Shown: positions 2,988 to 63,553 of the stretch, piece by piece
Position numbering within the stretch: the first letter of the stretch is position 1
Layout of the letters: each line of letters starts with the position of its first letter
NCBI GenBank assembly: GCA_001817915.1
Contig: MHJJ01000014.1
Location: forward strand, 3,695 to 67,694
Source: Candidatus Harrisonbacteria bacterium RIFCSPLOWO2_01_FULL_44_18
GTDB lineage: Bacteria > Patescibacteriota > Minisyncoccia > UBA6257 > WO2-44-18
Direction of reading: 5' to 3'
Length of the DNA stretch: 64,000 nt
Position numbers and translations under genes: made by a program
The notes under the pieces: model-generated
Databases searched by the model: none
Told to the model about the DNA's origin: nothing
The model's input: only the letters and a program-made list of their open reading frames with translations

Positions 2988-3079
2988 AGGGTTATACTTG
3001 AGTTGGGCGAGCTTATCGTGAGCTCGCTTGATAGCTCAAGGAATCAGTTCTTTGGCAAGGTTTTTGAGTAGGAGGCGCT

Positions 3080-3427
3080 ATGAGTGCTCTCACGATCGTT
3101 CTGGCGGCCAGCATTGTCATCATGGTTTTCGCGGCGGCCCTGATCTACAAGAGCAGGAAGTCCGGGAATCGCAGCGGCCTCGCGTCGGCGGATCAGCCCG
3201 CGCGTCCTCGCCCGAAGGTTCGGTTCGGCCAGTTCGAGACCGACCAACGGGTGGCCGTGCGTGGCATCGATCTCTTCGGGCGAGTCGAAGATCGCATGAT
3301 CGGCATGGGCAGGATCGTCGGCTTTGCCAATGGTGGCCGGGCGGTTCTTCAGATGGACAACCATCGGCCCGGCGTGTTCGTACGGCGAGTCATGCGCCGC
3401 CTCCGTTCGCTTGAGGTGCCTCGCTAG
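3080..3427 (+). CDS. hypothetical single-pass membrane protein encoded in a GC-rich island
   Basis: 115 aa. AGGAGG lies 6 nt upstream. N-terminal TM segment LTIVLAASIVIMVFAAALIY. Third codon positions are about 80% G/C in this frame, which favours it over the antisense ORF in the same register. Confidence 0.65.
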   Translation: MSALTIVLAASIVIMVFAAALIYKSRKSGNRSGLASADQPARPRPKVRFGQFETDQRVAVRGIDLFGRVEDRMIGMGRIVGFANGGRAVLQMDNHRPGVFVRRVMRRLRSLEVPR

Positions 3428-3543
3428 TATCTCGGTTCGACGGTAGAAGATCGTGGTTTCCGCTACGGTCGCAGTAACTTCCGTAGCGGACTCCTCGGCC
3501 TTCTGAAAAGGCCGACCACCACTCTCTCGGTTCGTCAGCGGAC

Positions 3544-3583
3544 GGCCGCCCAAGGTAACCCCTTGAGGCGGCCATTTTTTTTT
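3544..3583 (+). terminator. intrinsic terminator closing the GC-rich island
   Basis: Stem ggccgcc / ggcggcc followed by a T9 run. Two more hairpins lie upstream (ccgctacgg/ccgtagcgg at 3461-3491; tcggcc/ggccga). Confidence 0.75.
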
Positions 3584-3603
3584 GATAAAATCATATTACC
3601 GAT

Positions 3604-4119
3604 ATGTATGAATGTTGCACTGAAGCGATAGTTTTAGATAAAGAAGATTTAGGCGAGGCGGACGCCCGAGTTTTTTTATTTACAAAATCGTTAGGTAAAG
3701 TTGTGGCGAAAGTTAAAAGCGCGAAAAAAATAACTTCAAAACTATCTTCGCATTTGGAACCGCTGAATTTAATAACCGTCCGGCTGGTGGAAAAGAACGG
3801 TTTTCAAGTGGTAGATGTTTTATCGAATCGGAAACTCCCGCAATCAGAGCTTCATATTTTAAATATGGTTAATCAGCTAAGCGCCGAGAATCAGCAAGAT
3901 CTTGAACTTTGGTCGGTTTTGACCGGCAGCATTGATTTAAGGCCGGTTGATTTTCAGAAACAAATTTTGAGCGCCTTGGGCTTTGATCCGAAATTCGCGA
4001 GTTGTCAAAATTGCGACAGACCCAGACCAGATTATTTTTCTTTGCTTGATACGAGTTACTTATGCCAAATTTGCGCGTTAAAATCAGGGGTTAGACAAAA
4101 TTGTTTTAAATTAAATTAG
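3604..4119 (+). CDS. recO: DNA repair protein RecO (short form)
   Basis: 171 aa. N-terminal OB-like EAIVLDKEDLGEADARVFLFTK and C-terminal Cys pairs CQNC..CQIC are typical of RecO. Confidence 0.7.
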   Translation: MYECCTEAIVLDKEDLGEADARVFLFTKSLGKVVAKVKSAKKITSKLSSHLEPLNLITVRLVEKNGFQVVDVLSNRKLPQSELHILNMVNQLSAENQQDLELWSVLTGSIDLRPVDFQKQILSALGFDPKFASCQNCDRPRPDYFSLLDTSYLCQICALKSGVRQNCFKLN

Positions 4120-4121
4120 TT

Positions 4122-5840
4122 ATGCTAACGAAACTTTATTGGATTTTAGCAATTGTTTTAATTTTGCTTATCGGTTTAGCCGGATTTTTTTGGTTTCAAT
4201 CCCGTTCAAATCAAGGCTTGGATTTGCAAATTAACGCTCCCGACGAAGTTTTAATTGGAGTGCCTTTTGATTTGGAAATCAACGTAACCAACGATTCCGG
4301 CGGCATTTTAAAAGACAGCAAACTTTCATTGGCCATTCCCGAAGATGTCGTGTTTGTGGGAAGCGCCGTCGGTAAAACCGTGGAATATAAAACATTGGGC
4401 AATTTGGGCGTCGGCAATTTGACCAAAGAAAGTTTTAAACTGATGGCGTTGGGCGAGGAGAATAGCTTGAGGCAAATCGAAGCCACCCTTAGTTATTTGC
4501 CGACTTCTTTGGGATCGCGATTTGAAATCGTAAAAAAAATTGATTTGGAAGCGGGCCAATTCGGCTTAGTTGTTGATTTAACGGCGCCGGAAAAAGTTTT
4601 CAGCGGCGAAGATTTTGAGATCGCCGCTTCTTATAAAAATGTTTCCGGCATTGATCTTTCGGGCCTTATCCTTAAAATGGAATATCCGCCGACGTTTAAT
4701 TTTATAGAATCTTCCTTGGAGCCGGACGCCGGGAACAATGTTTGGAATTTGGGAGATTTGCGGCGAGGTTCGGAAATGGAATTTAAAATAAAAGGAAACC
4801 TTATCGGCCCGGACGATTCATTTTTTGATTTAAGAGCCAGCCTAGAGGCCAATTTTTTGGGTAAAACCTATGTCATCAGCGGTAAATCGGCCAACGTCTC
4901 TATTTCGCCGTCGCCGCTCTCTTTGCGAATTTTCCTAAACGAGGATCCTGATTATGTTGCCGGGCCGGGCGATGTTTTAAATTATTCTCTGGCCTACGCC
5001 AACAACACCGACGTCGCGCTGCGGGACGTTGTTATTGAAGCGAAATTAATCGGTGAAATGTTTGACCTAAAAACTTTAAATACTAACGGAATTACCCGTT
5101 CCGGTGAAAACGCGCTGGTTTGGAACGCGTCAAATTTGCCCGAGCTGGCAGTTTTACCGGTCGGCGCTTCCGGGACAGTGAATTTTCAGACAAAAGTCGC
5201 GAACAGCTACCCCATAAAAAGATTGAGCGATAAAAATTTTGTTCTAAAAGCGGAAGCTCAAATTGAGTCGCCGACTGTGCCGTATTTTGTGGGAGCGCGG
5301 AAAACAGTCGGTCTGGCAAAGCTGGAAACTAAAGTTGCCGGGCAAATAAAAGTTGATACCAAAGTGTATTTTCGAGACGCGGCTTCAGGAATTTTGAATA
5401 AAGGGCCGATGCCTCTTAAAGCGGGGCAACCGACTCAATTTACCGCGCATTGGTTTATTACTAATTTTGGAACAGACGTCAGCGGCGTGGAAGTCAGAGC
5501 ATTTTTGGAAGGAAATGTTAGAATGATAGCAGATAAAACAAAGAGCAATAGCGGCGCTCTTCCGGTTTATAACGAAAGAACGCAGGAAGTGGTTTGGCTG
5601 ATAGATCGGATTCCGGCTACTAAAGGAGTAATCGGCGACCCCCTTGAGGCGATTTTTCAAATTGAGGCAATGCCTTCCGCTAATTTGGCCGGGACTTATA
5701 TGCCGCTTATAAAAAATAGCTCAATAACCGCCACGGACGATTTTACCGGATTAAAATTAAGCGGTTCGGATTTAGCCGCGACCACCGCGCTGCCGGACGA
5801 TCCGACAGTCGGTCCGCAAGGCGGCATCGTTAAGAATTAG
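4122..5840 (+). CDS. hypothetical membrane-anchored surface protein with repeated beta-rich segments
   Basis: 572 aa with an N-terminal TM segment (LYWILAIVLILLIGLAGFFWF). Long ORF, no domain I can name confidently. Confidence 0.6.
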   Translation: MLTKLYWILAIVLILLIGLAGFFWFQSRSNQGLDLQINAPDEVLIGVPFDLEINVTNDSGGILKDSKLSLAIPEDVVFVGSAVGKTVEYKTLGNLGVGNLTKESFKLMALGEENSLRQIEATLSYLPTSLGSRFEIVKKIDLEAGQFGLVVDLTAPEKVFSGEDFEIAASYKNVSGIDLSGLILKMEYPPTFNFIESSLEPDAGNNVWNLGDLRRGSEMEFKIKGNLIGPDDSFFDLRASLEANFLGKTYVISGKSANVSISPSPLSLRIFLNEDPDYVAGPGDVLNYSLAYANNTDVALRDVVIEAKLIGEMFDLKTLNTNGITRSGENALVWNASNLPELAVLPVGASGTVNFQTKVANSYPIKRLSDKNFVLKAEAQIESPTVPYFVGARKTVGLAKLETKVAGQIKVDTKVYFRDAASGILNKGPMPLKAGQPTQFTAHWFITNFGTDVSGVEVRAFLEGNVRMIADKTKSNSGALPVYNERTQEVVWLIDRIPATKGVIGDPLEAIFQIEAMPSANLAGTYMPLIKNSSITATDDFTGLKLSGSDLAATTALPDDPTVGPQGGIVKN

Positions 5841-21424: not shown

Positions 21425-21667
21425 TGGACCTAGCCAGAATCCCCTGCCTGCCGGCAGGCAGGGAACTGGCGTTTCCTCATTGTCCCGACAGCAAAGGTGG
21501 ACCCAAGGAGATTCGAACTCCTGACCTCCACATTGCAAATGTGGCGCTCTAGCCAACTGAGCTATGGGCCCACCTTTACTGTCGTGGATCCTCGACTTCA
21601 TTTTATTATATTTTTTAAAAAAGTGCGTCGGGACAAATGAGGTGTTCTGCCACTGAACTATAGGCCC
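21425..21667 (-). pseudogene. interrupted Ala-type tRNA gene (host of the nested tRNA-Ala; also has a T-loop palindrome)
   Basis: Minus strand reads GGGCCTA-TA-GTTC-AGTGGCA-GAAC-A-CCTCA-TTTG, then a 151-nt insert, then CAA-TGAGG-AAAC-GCCAG-TTC, then a 21-22-nt palindrome, then GATT-CTGGC-TAGGTCC-A. G3:U70 is present. Confidence 0.6.
21498..21571 (-). tRNA. tRNA-Ala(UGC)
   Basis: GGGCCCA-TA-GCTC-AGTTGGCTA-GAGC-G-CCACA-TTTGCAA-TGTGG-AGGTC-AGGAG-TTCGAAT-CTCCT-TGGGTCC-A, with G3:U70. Confidence 0.9.
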
Positions 21668-21735
21668 GCCCACTTGATTTATATTATTCGATTGTTTGGA
21701 TTTTCGCCAGACTTTGTTTGCCAATAAAATCTAAC

Positions 21736-21766
21736 GGTTCAACGCGTTGAACCATTAGAGTTTTTT
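21736..21766. terminator. palindromic hairpin ggttcaacgcgttgaacc with a T-run (possible bidirectional terminator)
   Basis: Perfect 18-bp palindrome, followed by tttttt on the plus strand. Confidence 0.4.
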
Positions 21767-21890
21767 GATTCCTCAACATAATATTTATATTTCTAAACTA
21801 GTTATGCGCGGCATAAAGGAACCGGCGTCAAATACTTCGGGCTTCGGCGAGGCGAAGCTTGCTTACGCTAAAGCTTTGACGAAGCGAATG

Positions 21891-21977
21891 CGGAGACGGG
21901 AGGATTCGAACCTCCGATGCCCTTTCGGGCATACCGCATTTCGAGTGCGGCCCATTCAACCACTCTGGCACGTCTCC
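21891..21977 (-). tRNA. tRNA-Ser(CGA)
   Basis: GGAGACG...CCGCA-CTCGAAA-TGCGG, long variable arm TATGCCCGAAAGGGCATC, GGAGG-TTCGAAT-CCTCC-CGTCTCC-G. Confidence 0.9.
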
Positions 21978-21979
21978 AA

Positions 21980-22159
21980 TGCCCTCGGGAAGAATCGAAC
22001 CTCCATCCGCGCGTTAGGAGTGCGCTGTTCCCCGCCTGCCATCGCTTGTGCCCCCAGAAAGAATCGAACTCTCATCTTTCCCTTAGGACGGGATTGCTCG
22101 GTCCATTGAGCTATGGGGGCTCAGGCCATGGCGGGCAGTATCCATTGAACTACGAGGGC
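21980..22159 (-). pseudogene. interrupted tRNA-Arg(CCU)-like gene (host of the nested tRNA-Arg)
   Basis: GCCCTCG-TA-GTTC-AATGGATA, then a 108-nt insert (22031-22138), then GAAC-A-GCGCA-CTCCTAA-CGCGC-GGAT-GGAGG-TTCGATT-CTTCC-CGAGGGC-A. Confidence 0.6.
22049..22120 (-). tRNA. tRNA-Arg(CCU)
   Basis: GCCCCCA-TA-GCTC-AATGGACC-GAGC-A-ATCCC-GTCCTAA-GGGAA-AGAT-GAGAG-TTCGATT-CTTTC-TGGGGGC-A. Confidence 0.85.
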
Positions 22160-53651: not shown

Positions 53652-53723
53652 CGCGGGGTAGAGAAGTAGTATCTCGCAAGGCCCATAACCTTGAGATCGT
53701 TGGTGCAATTCCAACCCCCGCAA
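53652..53723 (+). tRNA. initiator tRNA-fMet(CAU)
   Basis: CGCGGGG...CCCCGCA-A with the C1:A72 mismatch and loop CCCATAA. The D-loop (AGTAGTA) and T-loop (TGCAATT) are atypical. Confidence 0.8.
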
Positions 53724-53742
53724 CAAAATTTTTACTTTAATT

Positions 53743-53809
53743 GCCGGCGTAGCTCAGCGGCACCCCGCACTAAAACAAGTTTAGTACGGGGCAAGGAGCG
53801 AGCCAAGAT
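53743..53809 (+). pseudogene. orphan tRNA 5' half with a hairpin inserted in the D-loop
   Basis: GCCGGCG-TA-GCTC-AGCGGCA, then hairpin ccccgcactaaa/tttagtacgggg, then CAAG-GAGC-G-AGCCA... No 3' half was found downstream. Confidence 0.45.
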
Positions 53810-53884
53810 GGCTGGGTAGCTCAGTGGTAGAGCAGGCGTTTCATAAGCGCCAGGTCGCGAGTTCGATCCTCGCCCCAGCCACCA
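53810..53884 (+). tRNA. tRNA-Met(CAU) elongator type (or Ile2, if the anticodon is modified), CCA encoded
   Basis: GGCTGGG-TA-GCTC-AGTGGTA-GAGC-A-GGCGT-TTCATAA-GCGCC-AGGTC-GCGAG-TTCGATC-CTCGC-CCCAGCC-ACCA. Confidence 0.88.
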
Positions 53885-56084: not shown

Positions 56085-58055
56085 ATGAAATTTTCCTACA
56101 CATTATTAAAAAAACTGGCGCCCGTTATAAAAAGCTCCGAGCAACTGATGGAAGCCTTAGCTTTTCATGCTTTTGAAGTTGAAAAAGTTGATGGCGATGT
56201 TATAGACATCGTCATTCCTGCTAATCGTTATTCTGATGCCGCCTCGCATTATGGGATGGCCGTGGTAGTGTCGGCAATTTTAGGCAAAAAAACGCCAGAA
56301 TTAAAACTGCCGGCGCTAAAGTCTAAAGCGCAAAGTTTAAACTTCAAAGTTGGCATTGATTCCAAAAAGCTTTGTCCGCGTTACAGCGGACTTTATGCCG
56401 AGATTAACAAGATTGGTAAATCTCCCGAGTGGATGCAAAAAATTTTAATTTCCTGCGGTTTGCGTCCAATTAACAACATCGTTGACGTGATGAATTATGT
56501 GATGCTGGAAATAGGACAACCATTACACGCTTTCGATTTTGACGAAATAGAAAGCGTGAAATCCAAAATCCAAAATCCAAAATCCAAAAATATTGTCGTT
56601 AGATTAGCAAAAGAAGGCGAAAAAATTGAAACAATTGATGGTGGCAAATATGACCTCGATGTAAATGATTTAGTAATAGCGGATGAAAAAGGGGCATTAG
56701 CGATTGCCGGGGTAAAAGGCGGAAAGCGCGCCGAGGTTTCTTTAAAAACTAAACGTATTATTGTTGAGGCGGCGAATTTCGATTCGGTTAGCGTTTACAA
56801 AACTTCTCGGCGGCTCAATTTATTCACTGATGCTTCGGCGCGCTTTTCTCATGGACTAGCACCCGTGTTAGTTGAAAAGGGGATTAAGAGAGCGGCTCAG
56901 CTTTTGAAAGAAGTTTGCGGCGCCAGATTGGGCGATTGGCTCGATGTGAACTATGTGAAGCCGAGTAAAACGATTATCAAGTTTGACGTGGAAAGATTTA
57001 ATAAGTTGACCGGACTTAGTTTAAGCGAAAAAGCGTGTTTGGAATATCTTAAAAAATTAGGATTTCAAGCAAGGGGCAAATTTATTGAGCCGCCGGCTGA
57101 ACGGACCGACATTTTGATTTTCGAGGATTTAGCCGAGGAAATTGTTAATCTTTATGGGTATGACCGGTTGCTTTCGGTTGTCCCGCGCGCGCTCTTGAGC
57201 CCTTCTGGAGCGGAAGATCAAATAGTTCTTAAAGATAAAATCAGAAGCATTCTAACCGGCTTTGGCTTGAGTGAAGTTTATAATTATTCTTTCATCGGAG
57301 AGCCTGATCCGAATCTACAAAATAAATTTTCATTGGTGGAGCTGGTAAATCCAATTGCCGATGATAAGAAATACCTGCGGCCCAGTTTATTTCCTCACTT
57401 GACTAGAAATATCGAAGAGAATTTTCGGTTTTACGATGAAGTAAGGATTTTTGAAATCGGTCGCGTTTTTGCGAAGGCAAGCGGCAAGAACGGTATAGCA
57501 AGCGGCATTAATGAGCAATTGAGTTTGGGGATCGCATTGGGGCTTAAAAAAGGCGCGCCATTTTTGGAGTTGAAAGGAATTGTTGAACAAATGCTCGGAC
57601 AAGCGGGCTTAGTTGATTATTTTACAAAAGAAGACGGCGAAGGTCGTTTACGGCTTGAATCCGATCATCGCACGCTCGGGTATTTAATTGCCAAAGACAA
57701 TAAAGCCCTTGCGGAAATTAATCTTGATGAATTGCTTCAATTGGTGGTCGGCGAAAAAGAATATAGGCCATTGCCGAAATATCCATCGGCGACGCGCGAT
57801 CTTTCATTTATGGTTGACGCTGAAGCGAGAGTAGCCGCGATTCAAAATATTATTGAAAATACCAGCCATTTACTCGATGACGCCGACTTATTGGATTGGT
57901 ACGAAGACCCGAAACTTGGCCCGAATAGAAAAAGTCTTACTTTTCGATTAGTTTTCCAAGCCGAAGATCGAACTTTAACCGATGAGGAAGTCGATCAAGA
58001 GTTAGGCAAAATTGTAGCCAGTTTGAAGGAGAAGTTTGATGTAGAATTAAGATAA
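56085..58055 (+). CDS. pheT: phenylalanine--tRNA ligase beta subunit (short form)
   Basis: 656 aa with B3/4, B5, core and C-terminal FDX-ACB-like regions. Directly follows pheS. Confidence 0.9.
   Translation: MKFSYTLLKKLAPVIKSSEQLMEALAFHAFEVEKVDGDVIDIVIPANRYSDAASHYGMAVVVSAILGKKTPELKLPALKSKAQSLNFKVGIDSKKLCPRYSGLYAEINKIGKSPEWMQKILISCGLRPINNIVDVMNYVMLEIGQPLHAFDFDEIESVKSKIQNPKSKNIVVRLAKEGEKIETIDGGKYDLDVNDLVIADEKGALAIAGVKGGKRAEVSLKTKRIIVEAANFDSVSVYKTSRRLNLFTDASARFSHGLAPVLVEKGIKRAAQLLKEVCGARLGDWLDVNYVKPSKTIIKFDVERFNKLTGLSLSEKACLEYLKKLGFQARGKFIEPPAERTDILIFEDLAEEIVNLYGYDRLLSVVPRALLSPSGAEDQIVLKDKIRSILTGFGLSEVYNYSFIGEPDPNLQNKFSLVELVNPIADDKKYLRPSLFPHLTRNIEENFRFYDEVRIFEIGRVFAKASGKNGIASGINEQLSLGIALGLKKGAPFLELKGIVEQMLGQAGLVDYFTKEDGEGRLRLESDHRTLGYLIAKDNKALAEINLDELLQLVVGEKEYRPLPKYPSATRDLSFMVDAEARVAAIQNIIENTSHLLDDADLLDWYEDPKLGPNRKSLTFRLVFQAEDRTLTDEEVDQELGKIVASLKEKFDVELR
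56562..56589. repeat. heptanucleotide tandem repeat TCCAAAA x4 inside pheT
   Basis: tccaaaatccaaaatccaaaatccaaaa encodes SKIQNPKSK. Confidence 0.95.
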
Positions 58056-59104
58056 TGAAAACATTACGACTAGTTTTACTTCTGGTGTCAGTTGGCATAC
58101 TGGCTTTGGCTGGGGGAGTGTTCGCGCGGTATGGCTATGAAAAGGTTTCGGTGGCGCGCGCGCAAAAGATAGTTCAAAAATCAACCGAGCGTTTGTCGGA
58201 AATTAAGTCTTTTGAATACTCGGCTAAAGCAAAAATTGAGCAAGCTGGGCCCCCGCTTCCTGGGACTTCGGCAGTAATCGCGATAGACGGCGTTTCGGAT
58301 TTTAGTAGCGCGCAGAATCCAAAAAGCCGTTCTCTCTTGACTGTAATGCCCGAAAGTTTTCAGACGACCCTTTTGCCAAAAGACGCAGTTATAAGTTTAG
58401 AAACTAGACATTTGGGGAAAATTTATTATTTGAGACTAGCAATATCACCAGAGCTACTTCCCTTCTTACCACTCCAACTTCCCAAAGATTGGATTAAAAT
58501 TGATTTCGAAGAAGCGCGAAAATCACTTTTACCAAGTTTACCGGGCGTCCCGAAGGGCGCGGAGCAGGTGCGATTGTCCGAAGAGCAAAAAGCTAAACTT
58601 AAAGAGATTATTATCAAAGCCAAGCTTTTAAAGATAACGGCGGTTTTGCCCGGCGAAAAATTGGACGACATAGACACCTACCGCTATGGATTTGTAATAG
58701 ACAAAAACGCCCTTATAGATTTTGCCTGGCAGTTAATAGCATTACAGTTAGAGCTTATGCAGCAAATACAACCAGATCAGCCGGTTGATAAAGAAGCCCT
58801 GGGAAAAGCCAATGCCGATTTTAGAAAAAAGCTGGAAGAGCAGTTAGCGCTAATTGTAATGCCTAAAGGTGAAATATGGATAAGCAAAGCTGATCTTTTG
58901 CCCCGCAAAATATCTTTAGTTTGGGAGCCGACATTTCTTGGACAGACTACACCGACCGGTAAACTGGGCATAGAATTTATCTTTAAAAGTTTTAACCAAC
59001 CCGTAGAAGTACAAATTCCTTTTCCGACGAAATCACTTGAAGAAGTTATGGGGGCGCTTTTTGGCGATTTCTTTGGAGGTATTCCAGCCCCATTAGTAAA
59101 ATAG
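58055..59104 (+). CDS. hypothetical membrane-anchored protein
   Basis: 349 aa with an N-terminal TM segment. ATGA overlap with the pheT stop. Confidence 0.6.
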   Translation: MKTLRLVLLLVSVGILALAGGVFARYGYEKVSVARAQKIVQKSTERLSEIKSFEYSAKAKIEQAGPPLPGTSAVIAIDGVSDFSSAQNPKSRSLLTVMPESFQTTLLPKDAVISLETRHLGKIYYLRLAISPELLPFLPLQLPKDWIKIDFEEARKSLLPSLPGVPKGAEQVRLSEEQKAKLKEIIIKAKLLKITAVLPGEKLDDIDTYRYGFVIDKNALIDFAWQLIALQLELMQQIQPDQPVDKEALGKANADFRKKLEEQLALIVMPKGEIWISKADLLPRKISLVWEPTFLGQTTPTGKLGIEFIFKSFNQPVEVQIPFPTKSLEEVMGALFGDFFGGIPAPLVK

Positions 59105-60319: not shown

Positions 60320-63300
60320 ATGGCTAAAACAAAAGCAAAAAAAGCGAGTAAAAATGAGGAGAAACAGCCTTCTTATACTGCCAAAGACATTTATGTTTTG
60401 GAAGGATTGGAGCCGGTTCGAAAGCGGCCGGGGATGTATATTGGCACAACTGATGTTGCTGGCCTACACCACCTAATTTATGAAGTCGTTGATAATTCAA
60501 TTGACGAGGCGATGGCCGGATACGCGAAAAATATTCAAGTTGAGTTTTTGCCGGGCAATCGGATAGCGGTAACCGATGATGGCCGCGGCATTCCGGTAGA
60601 GATTCATAAACAAACCAAAAAATCCGCGCTTGAAACCGTGATGACAACTTTGCATGCCGGAGGGAAATTTGGCGGCGAATCTTATAAAGTCTCCGGCGGC
60701 TTGCATGGCGTCGGCGTTTCGGTAGTTTGCGCCCTCTCAAAGTGGATGAAAGCGGAGGTTTGCCGCGATAAAGGACTTTATGTTCAAGAATATGAGCGCG
60801 GTAAACCGCAATATAAAGTTAAAAAAATAGCAAAGTGCGATAGTACCGGCACTAAAGTAACTTTTGAGCCGGATCCGGAAATTTTTAAAACGATTGAATT
60901 CGACCGCAAGCGCGTCTTGGATCATTTGCGCCAGCAAGCTTTTCTTACTAAAGGCGCAAGAATCGAAGTCATCGATATTCGCGAAAAAACGCCTTTTTAC
61001 CACGCCTTCTATTTTGACGGCGGACTTTTATCATTTATCAAATTTCTTAACCGCAGCGAAAAACCGCTGCAAGAGACGCCTTTTTACATTAATAAAACCT
61101 CGGAGGGCGTGGAGGTTGAGGCGGTTTTTACTTATAATAACGAATTGGAAATTCAGGAATTGAGCTTTGCCAATAATATTTATACTCCTGATGGCGGGAT
61201 GCATTTGACCGGTTTTCGTTCGGCCTTAACCCGCACTTTAAATGATTATGCTCGCGGCAACGATTATGTTAAAAAAGATGAAGATAATTTGACTGGTGAT
61301 GATGTGAGGGAGGGTCTTGTTGCCATTGTTTCGGTGAAAATTCGCGAGCCGCAATTTGAAGGCCAGACTAAGGCAAGGTTAGGAAATTCTGAAGCCAGGA
61401 CGGCGGTTGAGGGCGTTATCGGTGAAGCGCTTAAGGAATTTTTGGAAAGAAATTCTGTCGATGCCAGGCGTATCATGGAAAAATGCCTGTTGGCCGCTAA
61501 GGCCAGGAAAGCGGCTAAAGCGGCGAAAGAAACCGTGCTACGCAAGGGGATTTTAGAAGGATTAACTCTGCCCGGAAAATTAGCCGATTGTAGTTCAAGA
61601 AACCCCGAAGAATCGGAGTTGTTTATCGTGGAAGGAGATAGCGCCGGTGGGTGTTTTTTCGGTGAAACAAAAGTAGCTTTATTAGATGGAAGGAATATCT
61701 CGTTTAAAGATTTAGTTGAGGAAGAAAAAAAAGGAAAGAAAAATTTTTGTTATACCATAAAAAAAGATGGCCATATTGGCGTTGCTCCTATTTTAAATCC
61801 AAGAATAACCAGGCAGAATGCTAAAGTGGCTAAGGTTATTTTGGATAATGGTCAAGAAATTATATGTACGCCAGGTCATAAGTTTATGCTTAGAGATGGC
61901 ACTTTTAGAGAGGCCAAAGATTTAAATTGCAGAGATTCTTTAATGCCTTTATATCGAAAAAAATCGGAGATTGGAGGGCGAATAACAATTGATGGGTATG
62001 AAATGGTCTACAATCCTAAAGAAAATTTTTGGAGGTTTACTCATGTTTTATCAGATGGGCTTAATTTAGAAAATAAAACGTATTTTGAAACTAATGGACC
62101 ACAAAGGCACCATAAAGATTTTAATAAATTAAATAATAATCCGAATAATATTACCCGACTATCCAAAGAAGATCATTTTAGAATCCATCAAGAAATTGCC
62201 CTGACCGTATTGAGAAGCCCAGAGGTTTTAGAAAAATTAAGGAAAATAAGGCAATCCCCCGAATATAGAAATAGGATAAGCAAAAAAATGCGCGAGCCCA
62301 GAATGAGAGCCATACTTAGCGAAAGAGCCAAAAAACAATGGGAAAACGAGAATTATAAAAAATTTATGGCTCAGAAGTTTTTAGGATTTTATAAAAATAA
62401 TGAGGAATACAGAAATAAAAATAAAAAATTACTGTACAAAAGCCAGATGGAGTATTGGAACAACGAAGACAACAGAAAGAAACAAGCCGAAAGGGTTAGA
62501 AATTATTTCCATAAAAATTTAGTCATAAGGTCTTGGCTTTCTCAAATCGCGAAACAGCAGTGGGATGATTCAGCTCTAATAAAATGGAGGGCGAACAAAA
62601 CCAAAGAACAATGGACTCAAGCATTTAGAATTAAAAGGAGCATGGCTTATAGCAAGACATATAAAGAGAAGGCCCTGAAATTGCTAAAAGAACTTTTTGA
62701 TGGAAATGGGAAAATTGAAAAAGGAGAATATACACGGGAAAGACTTATTAGAAAAGACAAATCTATCCTTAGATATGAAACCATTTGTGAAAGATTTTTT
62801 GATAGTGATGAAAATAAATTGAAAGAAGCCGTAATAAATTACAATCATAAAATTAAAGCAGTGATTCCATTAGAAGAAAAGATGGACGTATACGATATAG
62901 AGGTTCCCAATACTCACAATTTTGCTCTTGCTTCTGGAGTTTTTGTTCATAATAGTAGTAAGCAAGGACGTGACCGGCGAACTCAAGCAATTCTTCCGCT
63001 TAAGGGCAAGATTTTGAATGTGGAAAAATCAAGGATTGATAAAATGCTTTTGAACAAAGAGATTAAAGCGTTAGTGGTTGCCATAGGAACGGCGATAGCC
63101 GAGTCGTTCGATATCAATAAATTGCGCTACCATAAAGTGATTTTAATGACTGACGCCGATGTTGACGGATCGCATATCCGGACTTTGCTTTTGACTCTTT
63201 TTTATCGCTACTTTCCCCAAATTATTGACGAAGGCCATCTTTACATCGCCCAACCCCCGCTTTATCGCGTTCAAAAAGGCAAAGAAATAAGCTATATTTA

Positions 63301-63553
63301 CAGAGAAGAAGAAAGAGAAAAATTACCGAAAGAGGGGATTAATTTACAGCGCTATAAAGGTCTTGGCGAAATGAATCCGGAACAGCTTTGGGAAACGACC
63401 ATGGATCCGGCCAAAAGAGCATTGAGGATAGTGAAGGTGGATGATGTCGAAGAGGCTGATAGAATGTTTGATGTTTTGATGGGTGAAGACGTTGAGCCGA
63501 GGAAAAATTTTATACAAGCCCACGCTCTTTCAGTTAAAAACTTCGATATATAA
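60320..63553 (+). CDS. gyrB: DNA gyrase subunit B, interrupted by an intein
   Basis: 1077 aa. The exteins total 643 aa and carry the GLHHLIYEVVDNSIDEA, EGDSAGG / S-KQGRDR, PLKGKILNVEK and LMTDADVDGSHI motifs. Confidence 0.95.
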   Translation: MAKTKAKKASKNEEKQPSYTAKDIYVLEGLEPVRKRPGMYIGTTDVAGLHHLIYEVVDNSIDEAMAGYAKNIQVEFLPGNRIAVTDDGRGIPVEIHKQTKKSALETVMTTLHAGGKFGGESYKVSGGLHGVGVSVVCALSKWMKAEVCRDKGLYVQEYERGKPQYKVKKIAKCDSTGTKVTFEPDPEIFKTIEFDRKRVLDHLRQQAFLTKGARIEVIDIREKTPFYHAFYFDGGLLSFIKFLNRSEKPLQETPFYINKTSEGVEVEAVFTYNNELEIQELSFANNIYTPDGGMHLTGFRSALTRTLNDYARGNDYVKKDEDNLTGDDVREGLVAIVSVKIREPQFEGQTKARLGNSEARTAVEGVIGEALKEFLERNSVDARRIMEKCLLAAKARKAAKAAKETVLRKGILEGLTLPGKLADCSSRNPEESELFIVEGDSAGGCFFGETKVALLDGRNISFKDLVEEEKKGKKNFCYTIKKDGHIGVAPILNPRITRQNAKVAKVILDNGQEIICTPGHKFMLRDGTFREAKDLNCRDSLMPLYRKKSEIGGRITIDGYEMVYNPKENFWRFTHVLSDGLNLENKTYFETNGPQRHHKDFNKLNNNPNNITRLSKEDHFRIHQEIALTVLRSPEVLEKLRKIRQSPEYRNRISKKMREPRMRAILSERAKKQWENENYKKFMAQKFLGFYKNNEEYRNKNKKLLYKSQMEYWNNEDNRKKQAERVRNYFHKNLVIRSWLSQIAKQQWDDSALIKWRANKTKEQWTQAFRIKRSMAYSKTYKEKALKLLKELFDGNGKIEKGEYTRERLIRKDKSILRYETICERFFDSDENKLKEAVINYNHKIKAVIPLEEKMDVYDIEVPNTHNFALASGVFVHNSSKQGRDRRTQAILPLKGKILNVEKSRIDKMLLNKEIKALVVAIGTAIAESFDINKLRYHKVILMTDADVDGSHIRTLLLTLFYRYFPQIIDEGHLYIAQPPLYRVQKGKEISYIYREEEREKLPKEGINLQRYKGLGEMNPEQLWETTMDPAKRALRIVKVDDVEEADRMFDVLMGEDVEPRKNFIQAHALSVKNFDI
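61652..62953 (+). mobile_element. GyrB intein (434 aa) with an HNH-type endonuclease motif
   Basis: Starts at Cys (CFFGETKVALLDG), has block B TPGHKF, and ends VFVHN followed by Ser. Inserted within EGDSAGG|SxKQGRDR. The internal segment HHKDFNKLNNNPNNITRLSKEDHFRIH looks HNH-like. Confidence 0.88.

Follow-up and report, generated by a model that had tools for sequence, protein, structure and literature searches.

The gyrB gene of Candidatus Harrisonbacteria bacterium RIFCSPLOWO2_01_FULL_44_18 is interrupted by a canonical class-1 intein that splits the EGDSAGG / S motif of the Toprim domain and whose endonuclease region is of the HNH type, not the LAGLIDADG type. We analysed a stretch of 64,000 nucleotides (nt) from this genome (assembly GCA_001817915.1, contig MHJJ01000014.1, positions 3,695 to 67,694 of the forward strand; hereafter the window) and document here the anatomy, conservation, fold and distribution of the intein. 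The gyrB open reading frame (ORF) is the final large ORF of the window (60320..63553, + strand) and encodes a precursor of 1077 amino acids (aa). The intein extends from precursor residue 445, where it starts with CFFGETKV, to residue 878, where it ends with VFVHN, and is thus an in-frame insertion of 434 aa (nt 61652-62953) flanked by FIVEGDSAGG upstream and SSKQGRDRRTQA downstream. Without the insert GyrB is 643 aa long and the EGDSAGG-S junction is restored at the conserved motif. An earlier reading of this DNA, made from the letters alone (the original prediction), had described an insertion of this length within the motif and exteins summing to 643 aa; its coordinates and strings all match the sequence, and the ORF and junctions give the same extein total. 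We consider it very probable that the element is a bifunctional class-1 intein, orthologous to the cyanobacterial Ssp GyrB type.

The exteins hold all four Pfam domains found in a Pfam scan of the protein (HATPase_c, DNA_gyraseB, Toprim and DNA_gyraseB_C). The N-extein (aa 1-444; 60320..61651, + strand) comprises the ATPase and transducer domains, matched by HATPase_c and DNA_gyraseB, and the start of Toprim, and ends in EGDSAGG. The C-extein (62954..63553, + strand) opens with the +1 Ser and SSKQGRDR, completes Toprim, carries the GyrB C-terminal domain and runs to the stop codon. Here the Toprim match covers precursor residues 880-978, with profile positions 14-95 picking up right behind the intein, and DNA_gyraseB_C covers residues 1005-1066.

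Curated profiles and residue conservation both identify the insertion as an intein. It matches Pfam Intein_splicing (PF14890; E = 1.3e-19, 71 bits against a cutoff of 35.8), TIGR01445 for the intein N terminus (39.1 bits against a cutoff of 24.5) and TIGR01443 for the intein C terminus (30.7 bits against a cutoff of 15.6), and it has the HINT fold of a class-1 intein. The N-terminal splicing (HINT) half, intein residues 1-104 (61652..61963, + strand), contains the block A nucleophile C1 (precursor C445) and block B as T73-P-G-H76. The C-terminal splicing half, residues 399-434 (62846..62953, + strand), contains block F (DVYDIEVPNTHNFA) and block G (VFVHN), with D415, H422, H433 and N434 all present and precursor S879 as the +1 residue. 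We counted residue conservation over 104 distinct full-length relatives whose overall identity is just 45-60%. C1, H76, D415, H433 and N434 are retained in 104/104 and T73 in 103/104, and the splicing and HNH residues taken together are all retained in 102-104/104. The original prediction had called the splicing blocks canonical, with Cys1 and a +1 Ser, and had proposed a search of the insertion against intein profiles; the residues and the matches above curated cutoffs bear it out.

On the class-1 route, the two HINT halves would fold together after translation and then splice in four steps. An N-S acyl shift at Cys1 would be followed by trans-esterification by the +1 Ser and then by cyclisation of Asn434, aided by His433. 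A final O-N shift would join EGDSAGG-SSKQGRDR and yield a normal 643-aa GyrB.

Next to the N-terminal HINT half lies a beta-hairpin and HNH (beta-beta-alpha-metal) nuclease core (intein residues 105-189; 61964..62218, + strand). The motif itself, HHKDFNKLNNNPNNITRLSKEDHFRIH (residues 153-179, nt 62108-62188), provides H153, H154, D156, N161, N162, N163, P164, N166, H175 and H179. Among the relatives H153 and H154 are retained in 104/104 and H175 and H179 in 103/104, and positions N161-N166 are invariant. In the predicted structure, strands at residues 151-154 and 167-170 are followed by a helix at 172-187, forming a beta-beta-alpha unit. PHROG 7545 ('HNH endonuclease') aligns to intein residues 107-192 (E = 4.3e-9), and Pfam HNH_3 (PF13392) is matched by 17/20 relatives (best E = 1.5e-5) and is precomputed on two of the proteins recovered in our protein search (below). 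A Foldseek comparison with viral predicted structures (BFVD) gave a Bacillus phage SP-15 'Hint domain-containing protein' and an intein-bearing terminase as top matches, along with dozens of phage proteins named 'HNH endonuclease', 'homing endonuclease' or 'NUMOD4'. Sequence, conservation, PHROG 7545 and the modelled beta-beta-alpha unit all confirm the H-N-H pattern picked out in the original prediction; of the HNH profile searches it had suggested, that with PHROG 7545 was positive and that with Pfam HNH_3 fell short of the gathering score for this copy. The core would act as a nuclease, either nicking one strand or cutting both. H154 would be the likely general base, and H153/D156 and H175/H179 the likely metal ligands, of a site that would hydrolyse DNA with one metal ion, while N166 would likely brace the hairpin.

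Several observations weigh against reading the element as an active HNH homing intein of the Ssp GyrB type. This copy scores 11-12 bits against Pfam HNH_3, whose gathering score is 24.8 (E = 0.17-0.28). The loci of our genome scan were retrieved with the pattern [ND]KxNNNPxN[IL], and because that pattern spans N161-N166 the conservation of these positions is partly built in, leaving the His positions as the only unbiased ones in the genome-locus subset. A search of PDB sequences with a 20-sequence central-domain profile returned nothing at E <= 10, with the whole intein as query only weak HINT matches were found, and GenBank phage records contained no tblastn match to the central domain. Neither this sequence nor 20 relatives matched any NUMOD family (NUMOD1, NUMOD3 or NUMOD4) at E <= 10, so that the NUMOD search put forward in the original prediction came back empty, and the helical region has no match to another DNA-binding profile either. 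We know of no published endonuclease activity test for any GyrB intein. We take the window intein to belong to the family of the Synechocystis sp. PCC 6803 GyrB intein (Ssp GyrB, 435 aa), which Dalgaard et al. reportedly presented in 1997 as the first HNH intein described. A full-text literature search found no paper explicitly linking a GyrB intein to HNH, and a search for an Ssp GyrB peptide string had no result either.

The alternative that survives best, to which we assign a low but appreciable probability, is that the HNH domain has decayed and is inactive, being kept only because its deletion would disturb folding, in an intein that is late in its homing cycle and still splices. Dead endonucleases are frequent among inteins, this copy matches Pfam HNH_3 weakly (E = 0.28), and in the full-length model the predicted local distance difference test score (pLDDT) falls to 53-70 around residues 270-330. 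However, the insert is at full family length (434 aa, against mostly 429-435 aa in relatives), and its putative catalytic residues are all intact and are kept in 103-104/104 relatives from many phyla. The low GC content at third codon positions (GC3) also suggests incomplete amelioration to the host. Lastly, the central region is about 50% identical to that of relatives, little below the N-terminal HINT half at 61%, a sign of purifying selection across the module as a whole.

Much less probable is that the insertion stays in GyrB as a permanent domain without splicing, or serves as a regulatory switch that splices conditionally, instead of being a selfish homing element. Inteins of replication and repair proteins have been proposed to splice conditionally, and the occupation of one fixed site over a very wide range of lineages could be seen in the same light. 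Yet the insert splits the catalytic Toprim motif, and an unspliced precursor should therefore be inactive. Moreover, the Ssp GyrB intein, taken here as a relative, splices constitutively in E. coli, where its natural, mini and split forms have all been found to splice (PMC3620165). The splicing nucleophiles and assisting residues are all kept in the window intein, and its low GC content and patchy spread over bacteria, archaea and a viral contig fit horizontal homing. Scarcely credible is a third alternative, in which the H-N-H pattern is a coincidence and the central region houses a LAGLIDADG endonuclease in cryptic or degenerate form: LAGLIDADG is by far the most frequent type of intein endonuclease, but no LAGLIDADG profile in Pfam matched this sequence or 20 relatives at E <= 10. 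The original prediction had likewise seen no LAGLIDADG motifs there and had named a degenerate LAGLIDADG domain as its own counter-case. All three alternatives are disfavoured by residues that are intact and conserved, by the fold and by a relative that splices.

If the element is a homing intein, as we prefer to read it, the free 434-aa intein would act as a monomer, a homing endonuclease of the I-HmuI / HNH_3 type whose HNH core has attached to it a long basic helical array and a small helical module at the C-terminal side, possibly a helix-turn-helix. Array and module would lie along the conserved sequence of intein-less gyrB and read it, here at GTGGAAGGAGATAGCGCCGGTGGG^AGTAGTAAGCAAGGACGTGACCGG. 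A cut or nick of the empty allele would then provoke recombinational repair from an intein-bearing copy, and this repair would copy the element into the empty site, resulting in horizontal spread.

The HNH-type GyrB intein is among the most widely spread intein alleles. Searching a collection of 5.8 billion proteins with the intein gave 690 matches, and among the best 120 of these all save a few unnamed fragments carry gyrase-B domains or the name of gyrase B. The best-scoring matches span the whole intein at 45-60% identity. Carriers in the protein search include Patescibacteria, DPANN and methanogen archaea, Chloroflexota, Cyanobacteria, Omnitrophota and Campylobacterales, and several of the matched proteins are already titled 'intein-containing DNA gyrase subunit B'. 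A genome scan with the central-domain alignment as query and one genome per species located this endonuclease module in the genomes of at least 499 species. Among the best 80 loci, a script could read the N junction in 72 and the C junction in 50. All readable junctions lie in gyrB and have the same form, with [E]G[DEAP]SAGG directly before the first C of the intein and S[AS][KR] directly after its final HN, and complete inteins are 431-435 aa long with one mis-parsed exception. Loci at the EGDSAGG / S site include those of the cyanobacteria Microcystis, Richelia, Rivularia and Dactylococcopsis. The element as such belongs to a long-known and widespread intein family, and its helical repeat arm alone is undescribed. 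We also noted eight loci whose stop-to-stop gyrB frames measure 1245-1806 aa, where a single intein gives about 1075-1100 aa; this suggests further inteins at other gyrB sites.

Base composition differs between intein and host gene, with a GC content of 32.5% in the intein and 43.9% in the exteins, and a GC3 of 0.28 and 0.42-0.44, respectively. We considered whether the low GC content is a sign of recent transfer into this genome and rejected that reading, since intein GC lies below extein GC in 77/77 homologous loci (by 7.4 points on average; mean -7.4) and tracks host GC across these loci (r = 0.87). The low GC content is instead a family-wide trait of a horizontally moving element that has only partly ameliorated. 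On viral contigs, a single full-length GyrB-type copy was found in IMG/VR (IMGVR_UViG_3300033145_001746, 98.9 kb; match 3001-3891, 46% identity), where the intein lies inside a 1073-aa GyrB-like ORF; either a phage encodes this gyrase, or the contig may be cellular and mis-binned. In a further set of 46 loci, dozens of related HINT+HNH inteins reside in host genes other than gyrB on IMG/VR viral contigs. These include RtcB-like hosts ('VGVDIGC...HNCGM') in at least seven loci and large phage proteins with frames of 1000-1650 aa in at least eight. Many host genes are therefore occupied by this lineage, and phages may be a route by which it circulates.

Beyond the HNH core, intein residues 190-345 (62219..62686, + strand) are predicted to form a basic array of about nine short alpha-helices, which we propose as a DNA-binding arm. 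The region contains 42 K+R against 17 D+E residues (net charge +25, isoelectric point (pI) 10.3), and its mean net charge across 20 relatives is +15. Profile self-comparison of the family alignment reveals a repeat, LS..AK.QW.[DN], with a unit of about 35-39 aa at intein residues 222, 261, 296 and 313. Its top score is 32.4, where shuffling the columns gave a null maximum of 15.8 +/- 3.1 and no more than 27.2 in any of 50 shuffles, and the repeat tryptophans W230, W269, W304, W312 and W321 are near-invariant among relatives. Self-BLAST of residues 180-345 showed no off-diagonal alignment, and the repeat is detected only by profile self-comparison; by that measure against the shuffled null, the Lys/Trp-rich quasi-repeats of the original prediction are real. 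The helical region has no match in Pfam or PDB sequences, and the structural matches to phage proteins labelled NUMOD4 are weak (Foldseek, BFVD; E about 0.06). The 156-aa array is kept in every full-length GyrB copy inspected. The model of the central domain has a pLDDT of 92.5 and a predicted template modelling score (pTM) of 0.39, and this combination of low pTM with high pLDDT may be read as an elongated shape.

The net charge of +25 and the pI of 10.3 make it plausible that the Lys/Trp repeats bind DNA, as the original prediction suggested. Behind them, residues 346-398 form a C-terminal helical sub-domain of the insert (62687..62845, + strand) whose three short helices (357-367, 375-383 and 387-395) may be a helix-turn-helix. 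An extended basic multi-helix arm on an HNH core fits the architecture of phage HNH and GIY-YIG homing endonucleases (PMC3943268). Our more specific proposal, that residues 190-345 are a structurally distinct, modular, repeat-based arm for reading DNA, is tentative and rather doubtful at present; each LS..AK.QW unit would then touch successive turns of the gyrB target. If true, the repeat arm would represent a new class of DNA-binding module associated with nucleases, and one of some engineering potential.

Comparison with known systems places the element next to the cyanobacterial GyrB inteins, which are inserted in the same host protein at the same EGDSAGG / S point, are of nearly the same length (435 aa, against 434 aa in the window) and share the HINT / HNH / helical insert architecture. 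Over the central region, cyanobacterial GyrB loci are 48-49% identical to the window intein. Differences from the Ssp and other cyanobacterial GyrB inteins lie in the host, here a member of the Patescibacteria (Ca. Harrisonbacteria), and in a sequence divergence of 40-55%; the +1/+2 residues are SS in the window intein and SA in most relatives. A provisional Ssp GyrB mini-intein query aligned to the window intein in register, at 67% in its N part (105 aa) and 72% in its C part (43 aa). This provisional query is closest to cyanobacterial inteins, with identities of 74% for the N part and 84% for the C part, and its C part aligns at positions 393-435 of a 435-aa cyanobacterial intein.

Other systems share fewer features. 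I-HmuI (PDB 1U3E) nicks one DNA strand; unlike the window intein it is encoded by an intron and stands free instead of forming part of an intein. It lacks a 150-aa Trp/Lys helical repeat array and is only 16% identical to the window intein. From phage HNH_3 / NUMOD4-type enzymes the window intein differs in having no Pfam match to NUMOD1, NUMOD3 or NUMOD4. HNH inteins of phage proteins (RtcB-like, terminase and others) have homologous HINT halves and, between them, the same GYE.VYNP..W.FTH / HH.DFNK.NNNP.N core as the window intein, which is also matched by NCBIfam NF052663 'RtcB_rel_intein2' (148 bits). These phage inteins differ in host gene and insertion site, and their helical regions are shorter or different. 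Alignments by tblastn to the non-gyrB inteins of IMG/VR mostly end near residue 115-185 of the 299-aa central-domain query, and the full Trp-repeat array was seen in GyrB copies only. LAGLIDADG inteins (PI-SceI, PI-PfuI and the Mxe/Mtu GyrA type) have another endonuclease fold, and the window intein carries no match to their motif or profile.

In public records the intein is easily overlooked. The Ca. Harrisonbacteria entries OGY63121.1 / OGY65198.1 are titled just 'DNA gyrase subunit B', with the intein unmentioned, and many database homologues appear as partial gene calls under the names 'toprim domain-containing protein', 'ATP-binding protein' or 'hypothetical protein'. Elsewhere in the window, Pfam found no other intein in nine further large ORFs or in the small ORF after gyrB (SecE). 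The remaining context is that of ordinary housekeeping genes (leuS, glmS, a P-type ATPase gene, ligA, a pilB-like gene, pheT and secE) and nine tRNA genes, among them clusters of three at 21498-22120 (- strand) and of two at 53652-53881 (+ strand). Two ORFs have no Pfam family at E <= 0.001, namely 4122-5840 (+ strand, 572 aa) and 58055-59104 (+ strand, 349 aa). The latter follows immediately downstream of pheT, the stop codon of which is overlapped by the start codon of this ORF.

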